Shown one piece after another: positions 39,001 to 45,000 of a DNA stretch of 61,765 nt; position 1 is the stretch's first letter; each line of letters starts with the position of its first letter. The position numbers are program-made. The stretch lies in sequence record AP004402. One strand, 5' to 3'. The DNA comes from Stx2 converting phage I.

Positions 39001-42000
39001 GCCAGCTTCCCAGCCAGCGTTGCGAGTGCTGTACTCATCCGTTTTATACCTCTGAATCAATATCAACCTGGTGGTGAGCAATGGTTTCAACCATGTACCG
39101 GATGTGTTCTGCCATGCGTTCCTGAAACTCAACATCGTCATCAAACGCACGGGTAATGGCTTTTTTGCTGGCCCCGTGGCGTTGCAAATGATCGATGCAT
39201 AGCGATTCAAACAGGTGCTGGGGCAGGCCTTTTTCCATGTCGTCTGCCAGTTCTGCCTCTTTCTCTTCACGGGCGATCTGCTGGTAGTGACGCGCCCAGC
39301 TCTGAGCCTCAAGACGATCCTGAATGTAATAAGCGTTCATGGCTGAACTCCTGAAAATGGCTGTGAAAATATCGCCCGCGAAATGCCAGGCTGATTAGGA
39401 AAACAGGAAATGGGGTTAGTGAATGCTTTTGCTTGATCTCAGTTTCAGCATTAATATCCATTTTTTATAAGCGTCGACAGCTTCACGAAACATCTTTTCA
39501 TCGCCAATAAAAGTGGCGATAGTGAATTTAGTCTGGATAGCCATAAGTGTTTGATCCATTCTTTGGGACTCCTGGCTGATTAGGTATGTCGATAAGGCGT
39601 TTCCATCCGTCACGTAATTTACGGGTGATTCGTTCAAGTAAAGATTCGGAAGGGCAGCCAGCAACAGGCCACCCTGCAATGGCATATTGCATGGTGTGCT
39701 CCTTATTTATACATAACGAAAAACGCCTCGAGTGAAGCGTTATTGGTATGCGGTAAAGCCGCACTCAGGCGGCCTTGATAGTCATATCATCTGAATCAAA
39801 TATTCCTGATGTATCGATATCGGTAATTCTTATTCCTTCGCTACCATCCATTGAAGGCCATCCTTCCTGACCATTTCCATCATTCCAGTCGAACTCACAC
39901 ACAACACCATATGCATTTAAGTCGCTTGAAATTGCTATAAGCAGAGCATGTTGCGCCAGCATGATTAATACAGCATTTAATACAGAGCCGTGTTTATTGA
40001 GTCGGTATTCAGAGTCTGACCAGAAATTATTAATCTGGTGAAGTTTTTCCTCTGTCATTACGTCATGGTCGATTTCAATTTCTATTGATGCTTTCCAGTC
40101 GTAATCAATGATGTATTTTTTGATGTTTGACATCTGTTCATATCCTCACAGATAAAAAATCGCCCTCACATTGGAGGGCAAAGAAGATTTCCAATAATCA
40201 GAACAAGTCGGCTCCTGTTTAGTTACGAGCGACATTGCTCCGTGTATTCACTCGTTGGAATGAATACAGTGCTTATTCGTACTAATAAAATACCCAATTT
40301 TCTGTTTCTTGGTTGTGTCCAAAGTTATATTCAATATCTGGTGTTGATGTATCAATATTCTTCATACCATCAACAAGAGTTGATACAACAGCCAAATCTT
40401 GTTTGATTCTCATTAAATGGTATTTCTTCCGGCGCAATAAACTTTCAATGGCAAGTTTCTTCGTTGGGAATGCAAAAGATCTTTCTGCATTTTTTGCTAC
40501 TTTCTTAATTGCATATCTATTTCTCCTTTGTTTCCATTCCTGTAACCACTGATTTGGTGCTGGTTTAAAATTAACAATCCAATGCGCAGGAACCAACCAT
40601 GCATAATGCTCTGTCTGATGAAAAGCTATATATTGAAGTGCGAATATTTTTATCCCATCTTCTTCAACTGTCGCCTGGAATCTCCAGAAAACAGGCATTC
40701 CATCATGTTCAGTTTCTGATTCAGGAAAAGGTACGCTCCATGATTTTGTCATATCTCACCTCAAATAAGTGGTTTGCTGCCTAATTTCATTTTCTGGCGA
40801 CCAACACAAGTCACCTCGCCGTCAGTTGTTTTGATTTCCGGTAGCCTGCCGCGTAAATGGCTACGTTTGGAAGACATACACCAGTTTCTGGTTGCTTATG
40901 TCCAAACTCATTCGCGTACACAATGGCCGCTCGCTCCAGATTGCGTCTGTATTCTTTCTGTTGCCAGATCACGTCCTGTGCCATGAACTTAATTGGCTTA
41001 GCGTCTTCTATGCGCTCAGGCGTTTCGTGAGTACCTTTAGCCTGAATCTGCGCTCTGCTTAGAGTAGGGCGGTGTAATACTTCTGAACTTATTGCTTCTT
41101 CGCGGGCCAGTACGCCGTTAGCTAATGCCTTTGCCTTTAAACGCTCACGACGACGAGAACGTGAATTGCCTTTGAACTGAGTTCTGCGTGTCATATAGAC
41201 CTCCTGATGAACTTTGGTGGTGTGGTAGGTGGGAGACCCATTTCGACCTGTTTCGGCCTACTTCAATTCGGCAATAGTCCCGCAGGCCTCGCCGCTTTAC
41301 GTGCGACATATTCCCGTCCATGAACCCTTCACCACACCCCAAAGTTCACTTTGGTTATTGCGCTTTGTCAGCGCCGTAGATTCATATTCGAATCGTTGTA
41401 TATTCACCGCCCTGGTGAGTAATGCGTCCTGCTGACGACGATAATAATGAACCAATAGTTCGACATTATCAAGAACTATTGGTACGAATTTTGGTGATTT
41501 ATTAACTCTACGAAGTATGATTCTGATATATAAGGAAATTTATTTTTGAAAATGTGGCTGATGAAGGTTATGCGGCAGGGATCATAACTGCATGGTTTAG
41601 CGAGTTACATCAATAAATACAATTGGTTATGTTTTTTAGGTGGGCGAACGTGAGGCAAAGAAAACCCGGCGCTGAGGCCGGGCTAGATTTTAAAGTATTT
41701 ATCTTTTAGAGATGTAGATGTAAAACTTTTCGCCTTTGAAAATTTTTTGTCATCAGAAGGGCTTATGAACTCATCTTTTTTGTAGGGAACCGCTAATGCT
41801 GCATCACGTCTGCGAGGCAGCTTGCTTACTTCCTCGCGCTTTTTCATGATCAGTTATCCTTTAATAACCTATACAGTTTTGTAGGGGTACATCCTGAGGA
41901 TATTGTTAAGTTCGTAGCACGCCTTTTCCGCCCATCATCGTATAAACGAAAACCAGTAGTAGACGAATTTTCTGCGTCAAAAACTATAGACAGTATAGCG

Positions 42001-45000
42001 TCCCCAGACTTTTTTTGCCATTCGCATGTGCCGTTAGTTGGTTTCGTCATCTGTAGACGCCAGTCAAGAACGCCATCACTTATAGCTGAGAGATCGTTTA
42101 GTACATCTAGTACGGATTGATATCTTTCATTTGGATCTACATGAATGCATTTGTTCACTATTGTTATTAATTTTTTATGTATATGGGGAGGATACTCTTT
42201 TAATGGATAGCAGCCATTAATTATCGACTCTCTGAGTTGTTCAATCGTGCTAAATGCAGATCTTTCTCTTTCAAAATTATCATGTCCAACACACATTCTA
42301 TATATGGTTAATCCTGCCTGATATATGTCATATGTGAAATTATAATCATTTGTTGATAAAGAAAAATATTCCGGTGGCACATGAAAATGATATCCAAACT
42401 CAGGCGCAGCTCTCGATTCCTCATTGACTAACTGAGATAATCCAAAGTCAGATAGCATGGCCTCATTTCTGTTTGATATCATAATGTTATTAGGTTTTAT
42501 ATCAAAATGCATAAGACCTTTTGAGTGTATATGATAAAGTCCACTTAAAAATTGAATGGAATACCGTATTATCTCCCTGCTTGTAAGATTATTTTTTTTC
42601 ATTAATTGGTTTAGCGAACCATTATGATAAAATGGCATGGCTATATAGATATTGCTCTCACATTGAGCAGCATACTGAACTTGCACAATATTTGGATGTG
42701 CATGTTTATAGAGAAGCCTTGCTTCATTAAAGTAGTCGTCGTGGTTAGTGTTTTCTTTTTTTTCTATTTCTTTAATCACCAAGTCATGAGCTAGGTGTCT
42801 GTCATGAGCCAGATATACTTTTGAAAAACAACCCTGTTCTTCTAGATCACTAATCCATTCGAATTCTACATCAGCTCTTTTGTATGGAGTTAGCATCCCC
42901 TTACCTCCGCAGATAGTGCAGCCAAAACAGCTTCATTTGTTTCAGTTGTAAAACCAGAATTATCGATTCCATTTATATTGCGGTGTGACTTCAATATTTC
43001 TTTATACTCGATCTCTGTTAGGTTCAATGATGATTTCATGCCAGATTTTCTAATAGTGTAATATTTTCTTACATCACTGCTTGAAAATGCTTCTTGAATA
43101 ACAGCTTCTATATAAAGGCGGTCAATGCTAAGATTATCAGAGTTTGATTCAGTAACGCGTATGGCAGCTAATTCAACATTATATAAATTAAGAATGTCGA
43201 GGATGTTATTTCTCACATACTTTAATTTTTCTGGTGTGTCTAAGGTCGAAGGTATTTTAATAACATCAACACATTTGAGTGCAGACTCATTAGTGCAATA
43301 TACAACAAAAGATGTAACTTTGGGCGCCGCTCTAACACCTAGTATTCTCATTTTTTATATCCTATTTTAGAATCAGGCCGCATCTCTGCGACCATCCATC
43401 ATCCAAACGTCTCTTCACTCATCCGAAGAAGCAGCAATCCGGGTTAGCACGCACAAGCTCAAGCGCATCAGTCAGCGAAAGTTCAGTACTGTACTGATGC
43501 CATTTCATATCCTTCCGCATCCAATAGATTTTCCATCTATCCAGAGAACGTATGTACTTGATTCTTGCTGATGGCAGGATGTTTGTTTCACCTGGATTGC
43601 CCTGCCACACGGGGCGCTGTTCGCCGATATCTATCGTTTGGTCATTGATGCTATAAACAATATCCAGTTCATTGCGGATATGTTCAGGCGGCCTTATGCT
43701 TTCAATGAATTGGTGAACTTCTTTTTTTACTGCTTGATATTCAAGGTCATTGAACGCCATCTATCCTCCTTACCCAAACGTCTCTTCAGGCCACTGGTTA
43801 CCAGCTATGTGACGATGAAGTCACGAACTTTTCAGCCACTCCCTTGCCTCGATGTCATCCAGATGGCGAGATTGCTTCAGAATACCAGCTACATACTCCA
43901 CCTTTGCTACTTGATGATAAGGCAACGTTATAGGCCTGTGATCCTGGTTAATGCTTGTAAATTGGTATTCTCCATCTCTGTCATAGCCAAGAACCTTAAT
44001 CATGTTGTGTCCTTCAACGGTTCTGACAAACACCTCATCACCCGGGAATACTTTGGTGTTAGGCTCAATGAGTACATATTCTCCTGATTTTATTCTGGGC
44101 CACATGCTGTCTCCTTTCACACGAAGACCAAAGGCATCTGGATCATCGCTATAAATTTTGAGCCACCCATCGCGCTCTTCGGTCATCTCGATGGCACCAT
44201 CAACACCAAGAATTGCCTCACCAACCACGCGCACTAACCCTTTTTTTAATTTGCCAACAAATGAAAGAGTATCTTCATCATTCGCTCCATTTAACGAAGT
44301 GCCGTGCTGAAGCCAAACAACATCAACGTTTAGAAATTTCGCAAGCGCATTCATTTTTTCCTGACGCGGTAAAGACTCAGCATTAAACCATTTGCTAACG
44401 CCTTTGGACGAAAGAGAAAGGGCACGGGCTATAGCCATTCCCCTACCATGTTCATCAAGACCAGCTTCTTTACAGGCTTGCGCTAGCCGCTGGGCGAATT
44501 CTTTGCGCACTTTTTCATTCTGAACCATGAGTACGATACTAAAGCACTTGCAAAAACTTTCAGTTCAACCATAATACGTACTGAAAGTACGAAAAAGGAT
44601 ATTCCTATGCAAAATCTTGATGAGCCGATTAAAGGTGTCGGCATCCCTGAAGTTGCGAAGGCTTGTGGAGTTAGCGAAAGGGCTGTCTATAAGTGGCTCA
44701 AAAACGGCTTCCTCCCTAAGACTGAGTTTTTTGGGAAAACTAAATACGCATCAAAAATCGAAGAGATTTCTGGTGGCAAATATCAAGCAAGCGAAATGCT
44801 TGAAATAAGCAAAAAGAACCTTCTGGCTGCATAAGTAACACCGCTATTTTCACAATGGACATTCGTCCTACGTCGCTGACAAAGCGAGTCCCAATATATC
44901 TGACCAACTAAGGCCATATGCGTTTCCACGCATACCTTTCAACTAGCTATTCACTATTGGAAATCTTAAGAAATGGAACAAACAAGTTACAGCAAACTAT

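Follow-up and report, generated by a model that had tools for sequence, protein, structure and literature searches.

A probable three-gene kinase cassette, with orf113 as a separate unit, in the cI operon of Stx2 converting phage I

The cI operon of Stx2 converting phage I (sequence record AP004402) carries, between the repressor gene cI and the N gene, a Hanks-type protein kinase gene, stk, accompanied by three further open reading frames (ORFs), orf113, orf153 and orf54. The window, i.e. the whole stretch of DNA analysed here, comprises 61,765 nucleotides (nt) and is 100% identical to phage 933W (AF125520 / NC_000924). Over its segment 41600–44600 the identity is likewise 100%, both to AF125520 / NC_000924 and to numerous Stx1- and Stx2-converting phages, among them phi24B, the immunity region of which is identical to that of 933W. 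In 933W, orf113 is named L0084, orf153 L0083 and orf54 L0081, and stk bears the same name. The OR/PRM annotation was mapped from NC_000924 onto the window with an offset of +31746. The features of the locus are as follows.

44521..44591, minus strand: OR operators oR3, oR2 and oR1 and the promoter PRM (pM) of the lysogen transcript (NC_000924 annotation)
43821..44528, minus strand: cI repressor, 235 amino acids (aa), helix-turn-helix (HTH) and S24 peptidase (Pfam Peptidase_S24, expectation value (E) 4e-16; HTH_3, E 1e-5; annotated cI)
43774..43788, minus strand: upstream copy of the 15-nt direct repeat TGAAGAGACGTTTGG bracketing orf113 (exact repeat)
43419..43760, minus strand: orf113 (L0084), DUF3024, PADLOC candidate PDC-S43 (Pfam, PADLOC)
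43403..43417, minus strand: downstream copy of the 15-nt direct repeat (exact repeat)
42890..43351, minus strand: orf153 (L0083), RuvC fold with Arg replacing the catalytic Asp; first gene of the cassette
41850..42896, minus strand: stk, Hanks-type protein kinase, 348 aa (Pfam Pkinase, E 2e-46)
41683..41847, minus strand: orf54 (L0081), small basic protein, third gene of the cassette (phrog_4063; slot conserved after stk)
41663..41684, minus strand: intrinsic terminator tM, end of the cI operon (8-bp GC-rich stem and T run; annotated tM in NC_000924)
40811-41194: N gene

On the minus strand the order is therefore OR/PRM, cI, orf113, orf153, stk, orf54 and tM, followed by the PL/nutL region and N. 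A 60-nt spacer containing a strong Shine-Dalgarno sequence separates cI from orf113, and 67 nt lie between orf113 and orf153. The stop codon of orf153 and the ATG of stk overlap by 7 nt (ATGCTAA, 42890–42896), and the start of orf54 follows the stk stop after a gap of 2 nt. An initial annotation, made from the sequence alone, had placed cI, orf113, orf153 and stk on the same strand ahead of N (41850–43760) and had noted the 7-nt overlap, and our ORF coordinates agree with both. Its count of three extra genes fell short by one, as there are four co-directional ORFs between cI and tM and orf54 had been missed. The low G+C content (GC) that it attributed to orf153 and stk was found (0.348 and 0.354 versus 0.494 for the whole window) and is shared by orf54 (0.376), the three genes forming an AT-rich block; orf113 (0.444) is close to cI (0.452), and N has a GC of 0.492. 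Promoter-like sites inside the cI operon were not in excess (10 observed, 10.2 expected), and tM was the sole terminator-like site on the minus strand from cI to N.

In cultures of phi24B lysogens, the products of orf113 (P2, NP_049484) and orf153 (P3, NP_049483) were identified on two-dimensional gels (Riley 2012, PMC3342100). Both proteins are thus made in lysogens, which excludes the alternative, raised in the initial annotation, that the two genes are not expressed there. The transcripts behaved like that of cI and were higher in lysogens than upon induction, the analysis of variance in that paper being not significant; the authors found neither a function nor an own promoter for the two genes (PMC3342100). 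Transcript levels of the genes in 42890–43760 were very different from each other (Riley 2012, PMC3342100). There is no excess of promoter-like sites in this interval, and processing, stability or an unrecognised promoter are candidates for the difference in level. During prophage induction cI, stk and ‘res’, as orf153 is called in phi24B, are not up-regulated (PMC4651098), and stk is expressed from PRM in stable lysogeny only (PMC3430580).

A scan anchored on orf153, using one genome per species, yielded 78 bacterial loci that span Gamma-, Beta- and Alphaproteobacteria, Bacteroidota, one cyanobacterium and one myxobacterium. In 75 of these the next gene downstream, in the same orientation, encodes a Stk homologue; the three exceptions are two loci cut by contig ends, including the myxobacterial one, and one with a degraded stk region (L078). 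When the search was anchored on Stk in viral contigs, orf153 was directly upstream in 72 of 75 new loci, the others comprising two at contig edges and one with a 5'-truncated stk. No intact Stk without orf153 was found among the bacterial and viral loci tested. The two genes overlap in 61 of 70 intact pairs (by 8 nt in 48, 4 nt in 4 and 1 nt in 9) and are 1–4 nt apart in 8. Judged by their sequences, orf153 and stk are a strictly conserved, translationally coupled pair at more than 140 loci in several phyla.

The pair is present in Pseudomonadota, Bacteroidota, Cyanobacteriota and Bacillota, the sole Myxococcota locus ending at a contig edge; the cassette spans no fewer than five bacterial phyla. 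Bacillus phage SPbetaL6 (SPbeta-like) and a Bacillus megaplasmid have the same layout of proteins of ~150, ~350 and ~60 aa. Their orf153-like proteins match the family hidden Markov model (HMM) with E 3e-38 and 4e-50 and keep R7, R/K65, E68 and E140, and the kinases match the Stk HMM with E ~1e-115. Clustering of flanking ORFs revealed no fourth conserved gene beyond synteny among close relatives.

The 135 immediate neighbours of the cassette include HTH regulators (7), CapP-like M78 peptidases (4), S24/CI repressors (3) and TnsD/TniQ proteins, integrases and N proteins (2 each), with single instances of dGTPase, DarG, Old, PtuA, SAVED-HNH and PDC-S54. The cassette also occurs on plasmids of Klebsiella, Providencia, Mesorhizobium and Bacillus and in 225 of 5426 complete E. 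coli genomes (~4%). Its distribution is mobile and patchy, in prophage accessory slots and beside defence genes, and these mobile and defence-type contexts, neighbours and plasmids alike, favour the exclusion-type architecture that had been read from the 933W operon. The CapP-like M78 peptidase (PADLOC capP, best E 3e-76) adjoins the cassette in Paraburkholderia, Caballeronia and Methylobacterium loci, upstream of the pair in L056, L058 and L073 and downstream on the opposite strand in L057; it resembles the CapH/CapP DNA-damage-responsive switches of other defence systems.

A few loci show decay. A Sphingomonas metagenome-assembled genome (L078, 6001–6456) has an intact orf153 homologue and a degraded kinase region, and in several loci (L015, L138, L192, L194) orf153 stands beside a frameshift-split stk. 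This asymmetry, with orf153 kept and the kinase lost, fits a toxin-like kinase and may also be due to assembly errors.

Stk is a Hanks-type kinase according to Pfam (Pkinase, PF00069; 158.8 bits against a cut-off of 31.7, E 2e-46). Across 71 homologues there is little or no variation at K42, E58, H130-F-D132-I-K134-P-N-N137 and D150-F-G, and the kinase is catalytically intact as judged by its sequence. The same degree of conservation is seen for W279 and W293 in the C-terminal part, where the family has a specific, conserved extension of ~80 aa. No structure has been solved within the Stk family, the closest ones available being those of ordinary bacterial Ser/Thr kinases. The catalytic loop, HFDIKPNN, has a Ser/Thr-type appearance. 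HipA and HipB models of Pfam and NCBIfam matched neither Stk nor orf153.

Via the kinase domain, PADLOC assigns Stk to mad6 (E 7e-50, the higher-scoring match) and to PD-T4-6 (best model E 1e-37). The PD-T4-6 models cover residues 20–275 of Stk only and also match housekeeping PASTA kinases, which makes this label generic. Moreover, PD-T4-6 is defined as a one-gene system, a definition that does not hold at the 933W locus because two partners of Stk are conserved. Papers citing Friedman 2011 (PMC3681748, PMC6356687) describe the Stk of 933W as a eukaryote-like tyrosine kinase with little or no activity in the absence of infection; they state that infection by HK97 activates Stk, which then excludes HK97, in line with the exclusion named in the initial annotation.

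For orf153 the decisive search was that for folds, which assigned the protein to the RNase H-like RuvC fold. At the sequence level identity to RuvC is ~12–15%, the scores stay below cut-off both for Pfam RuvC (PF02075; 14.2 bits, cut-off 22.2) and for NCBIfam RuvC (12.5 against 163), and a profile search of PDB sequences returned no RuvC among its matches. In an alignment to E. coli RuvC of low probability (hhalign), ‘ILGVR7’ of orf153 corresponds to ‘ILGID7’ and ‘LAAI-R65’ to ‘YFAI-E66’, consistent with a short Pfam match and with the strand positions. The acidic tetrad of E. coli RuvC (D7, E66, D138, D141) is accordingly incomplete in orf153, which keeps E140 (~D141) and the nearby E68; the assignment of E66 is tentative because of the low alignment confidence.

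The family is small, with 434 clusters at E ≤ 0.001 in a library of 1.84 billion, and residues were counted in 123 full-length representatives. R7 is present in 122/123, R or K at position 65 in 123/123, E68 in 121/123 and E or D at position 140 in 123/123, while R47, R78, E82 and E87 are each found in 123/123. The Asp of strand beta-1, which RuvC-type nucleases require, is never present. With this Asp missing from a tightly conserved charged site, we infer that orf153 is no canonical junction resolvase; the protein has a RuvC fold and is unlikely to act as a nuclease. RefSeq names for the identical orf153 sequence differ among genomes (‘hypothetical protein’ versus ‘RuvC family protein’), and the phage entries read ‘RuvC-like Holliday junction resolvase’ or, in phi24B, ‘res’. 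These functional names have fold-level similarity as their sole ground.

A small ORF of ~40–90 aa (mostly 49–72) is found close to the stop of stk at 67 of 70 bacterial loci and starts within −4 to +2 nt of this stop in 59 of the 67. Those from outside Enterobacterales can be aligned as a single family, with an N-terminal motif (N 84%, Y 74%, R 98%, L 69%) and a C-terminal D-x3-Y (Y 83%), after which come one hydrophobic and one aromatic residue. The ratio of non-synonymous to synonymous substitution (dN/dS) has a median of 0.22 in the 13 pairs unsaturated at synonymous sites, to which the calculation was confined since values over all pairs are saturated and meaningless; the small ORF is therefore a real protein-coding gene. 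In 933W, orf54 occupies exactly this slot, as do its clear relatives downstream of stk in enterobacterial loci, which have the motif MKK..PRRRDAALA.PY...KYFKL. A jackhmmer search from orf54 found no relatives outside Enterobacterales, and what orf54 has in common with the wider family is its place, its length and, loosely, an aromatic motif at the C-terminus. Hence, orf54 is the positional equivalent of this family, homology being unproven. Most enterobacterial homologues, which are basic and probably disordered peptides, have a conserved tyrosine (‘A-x-P-Y’), and the kinase encoded just ahead of them reportedly phosphorylates tyrosine. The small protein could be a substrate or pseudosubstrate of Stk.

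The remaining gene, orf113, behaves differently. It matches DUF3024 over residues 4–113 (Pfam, 106.5 bits against a cut-off of 24.9, E 1e-30) and the PADLOC model PDC-S43 over residues 1–113 (E 4e-41); we found no test of a defence role of PDC-S43 in the literature, and this role is that of a candidate. The AlphaFold2 model (mean predicted local distance difference test score 90.6) consists of a helix, five strands and a helix. The initial annotation had proposed remote-homology searches and structure prediction for both companions of Stk; these led to a fold for orf153, and for orf113 to DUF3024 with no convincing structural neighbour in the fold search.

A CI-type repressor (HTH and S24) of one of several immunity types lies directly upstream of orf113 in 76 of 80 viral loci. 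Downstream, the kinase cassette follows in ~31 of these loci and ~48 are without kinase. Other cargo includes a 173-aa protein, a ParA-like ATPase, a 349-aa protein with a 150-aa membrane protein, and an ImmA/IrrE-like protein with a PIN-like protein. In the variable-cargo loci L137, L139, L144, L146, L151–L153, L157 and L159, orf113 is at ~6001–6342 of each. Conversely, cI stands directly before orf153-stk, with no orf113, in at least 7 prophage loci, and orf113 lies beside the pair in a single one of the 78 bacterial loci (Proteus penneri). It is present in 227 of 5426 complete E. coli genomes. The exact repeat TGAAGAGACGTTTGG occurs within the window at 43774 and 43403 only, and its 14-nt core is found at the 3' end of HK97 cI (L235, ~6244). 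One or two copies of a repeat of this type are seen in many related prophage loci. The repeat is likely a module junction through which orf113 was inserted or exchanged. On this gene-order evidence orf113 is separate from the kinase unit, and it may be a candidate defence gene on its own or may modulate the repressor/induction circuit. The slot from cI to N, in which orf113 is the constant leading gene and the following cargo varies, is an apparent uncharted hotspot of lysogen-expressed, probably defensive genes in lambdoid prophages.

The best explanation for these observations is that the PRM transcript after cI comprises two independent accessory units, orf113 on the one hand and orf153-stk-orf54 on the other, the latter being a horizontally acquired AT-rich cassette. 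The three genes of the second unit are inherited and transcribed together and very probably also translated as a unit, and that they form one functional unit is very likely. We favour, with a probability of roughly 60%, a functional cassette in which the partners regulate the kinase. The exclusion module suspected in the initial annotation would then consist of the kinase, its tightly coupled orf153, which stood the comparison of loci, and orf54, without orf113, which keeps to CI repressors.

Stk would be the effector of this cassette: an infecting phage would switch it on, cell proteins would be phosphorylated and the infection aborted, as published for HK97. Exclusion has reportedly been attributed to the kinase activity and to broad tyrosine phosphorylation. 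The products of orf153 and orf54 would act as regulatory subunits, holding Stk inactive as long as the lysogen is uninfected and linking it to a phage signal. As a dead RuvC, orf153 might sense a recombination protein of the phage, or else the branched or annealed DNA which this protein produces; it is favoured as sensor because, of the two partners, it is the larger and the most conserved, and because its fold is one that binds DNA junctions. We put forward this sensing of recombination tentatively and consider it rather doubtful. In the GenBank record of HK97 (AF069529) the erf product (776–1381 of the extracted locus) is labelled ‘Gp40’ like that of the preceding gene 40. From the gene order 38, 39/abc2, 40, erf, 42, 42.1, 43/kil it follows that erf is gene 41 and gp41 an Erf-type single-strand annealing recombinase. 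HK97 gp41 is reportedly the factor needed to trigger Stk. The recombinase of 933W itself is of the Bet/RecT type (NC_000924 annotation), so that self-triggering would be avoided. The complete chain, in which a dead-RuvC sensor of HK97 Erf or branched DNA frees or activates the Hanks-type kinase and the small Tyr-containing protein serves as pseudosubstrate or brake, is unlikely to hold in all its parts. If true, it would represent a new type of sensor in bacterial immunity, a bacterial pseudo-nuclease wired to a eukaryotic-like kinase.

Several points weigh against a cassette with regulatory partners. The mapping of R7 and R65 to catalytic residues of RuvC derives from the short Pfam match, the low-probability hhalign alignment and the strand register, and E68 and E140 could constitute a non-canonical active site. 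The pairwise-identity matrices of orf153 and Stk correlate with r = 0.88, reached by 0 of 999 permutations, which is consistent with a unit, but such co-variation is expected from the shared ancestry of adjacent genes alone. The HMM of the wider small-ORF family did not match orf54, and the hhalign probability between them was 1.5%. Finally, were cloned stk alone to exclude HK97, the partners would not be strictly needed, at least when the kinase is over-expressed.

The main rival is a toxin-antitoxin module without sensing, with orf153 as stoichiometric inhibitor of a toxic kinase and orf54 as a possible second modulator; Stk would be released when infection stops host or prophage transcription or when the inhibitor is degraded. 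The antitoxin-first order with overlaps of 1–8 nt, generally known as typical of type II pairs such as HipBA-type modules, speaks for this, as does the silence of Stk in uninfected lysogens described in the citing papers. The locus with orf153 alone (L078), the loci with orf153 and a frameshifted stk, and the lack of an intact solo Stk among the loci tested point in the same direction, even though these few decay cases could represent assembly errors. A conserved, folded RuvC domain of 150 aa with an invariant constellation of charged residues is, however, unlike labile antitoxins. Activation by HK97 reportedly depends on one particular phage gene, which argues for specific sensing, and we regard this alternative as possible but not probable.

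The preferred reading of orf153 as a regulator is further to be weighed against its being the effector, namely a nuclease with a non-canonical site (E68, E82, E87, E140) that would be activated by Stk through phosphorylation, e.g. of S91, S92 or Y97, and would then degrade phage or host DNA. The RuvC fold, the four invariant glutamates and the invariant Ser and Tyr residues are compatible with this, and pairs of sensor and nuclease are generally known to be common in defence systems. No catalytic residue is better conserved in RuvC, and in RNase H-like nucleases generally, than the Asp of strand beta-1 (E. coli D7). In orf153 its position is taken by Arg in 122/123 sequences and the strand-4 Glu aligns with Arg or Lys; furthermore, the citing papers name Stk as the excluding kinase. 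An effector nuclease is therefore improbable.

Quite improbable, too, is a single exclusion module made up of orf113, orf153 and stk. All three are co-transcribed in 933W and orf113 matches a defence-candidate model, but orf113 adjoins the pair in 1/78 bacterial loci, ~48/80 of its viral loci lack the kinase, 7 loci have cI followed by the pair without it, its GC differs and it is bracketed by a direct repeat of its own. Least credible of all is that orf153 works as a regular RuvC-like Holliday junction resolvase of phages (phi24B ‘res’, PHROG 3875, RefSeq) and stands beside stk by chance, since, despite the PHROG and RefSeq names and the RuvC fold, sequence-level RuvC matches fail in Pfam and among PDB profiles, the catalytic Asp is missing family-wide, expression is from the lysogenic operon without induction alongside lytic genes, and the strict kinase linkage extends to non-phage chromosomes, plasmids and Tn7-like elements.

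A cassette of kinase and regulatory partners would bear on how Stk, which is among the oldest examples of kinase-based abortive infection, stays off and senses HK97. Two obligate, deeply conserved partners are at hand as candidate ‘off switch’ and ‘sensor’. As to annotation, the label ‘RuvC-like Holliday junction resolvase’ looks functionally wrong, and a ‘PD-T4-6’ call hides a three-gene system, the partners of which defence-finder tools miss entirely. Being located in the immunity region of Stx phages and present in ~4% of complete E. coli genomes, the cassette may shape the superinfection of lysogens of Shiga toxin-producing E. coli, whose superinfection range is relevant to phage ecology and to phage therapy of O157 strains.

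The PL operon may contain another acquired gene. Just downstream of N, a 156-aa ORF (40282–40752, minus strand) is AT-rich (GC 0.34–0.37) and matches nothing in Pfam. At the same place HK97 carries an equally long ORF, Gp45.

Recent surveys list Stk2, PD-T4-6, Gao_TerY and CapRel as the only kinase-related defences. We found no mention in the open-access literature of a RuvC-like or small-protein partner of Stk, or of a spread of the cassette over phyla. Current defence catalogues do not include the cassette, and in phage annotation the partner goes under the wrong label of a resolvase. The closest known system is the abortive infection by 933W Stk against HK97 (Friedman 2011; Tyler & Friedman 2004), which concerns the same gene in the same phage, co-transcribed with cI and silent until HK97 infects. 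As far as it is represented in the citing papers, the published system is a kinase alone and differs in this respect from the locus with conserved RuvC-like and small partners described here. Staphylococcal Stk2 and E. coli PD-T4-6 likewise use a Hanks-type kinase as abortive-infection effector triggered by a phage protein; they are catalogued as one-gene systems, whereas the Stk of 933W has two obligate neighbours and a family-specific C-terminal domain.

In phage lambda, rexA and rexB follow cI on the PRM transcript. The cassette resembles RexAB in this slot after cI and before N, in lysogen-only expression and, as is generally known for RexAB, in an abortive-exclusion logic of sensor and effector. 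The effector of RexAB is an ion channel rather than a kinase and the cassette encodes three proteins; no Rex model was among the Pfam matches or the listed PADLOC matches of the four operon proteins. With regard to its fold, orf153 differs from RuvC resolvases and from dead RuvC domains such as that of Cas12k in that identity is at ~12–15% without a sequence-level match, the catalytic Asp is replaced by an invariant Arg and the protein is always paired with a kinase. HipBA, HipBST and the KKP system of Pf prophages, a kinase-kinase-phosphatase module that is also prophage-borne and defensive (PMC11341870), similarly have a toxic kinase restrained by small co-encoded partners with overlapping genes. 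They differ in that Stk is of the Hanks and not the HipA type, the 933W locus has no phosphatase, and the partner of Stk has a RuvC fold in place of an HTH antitoxin or a second kinase.

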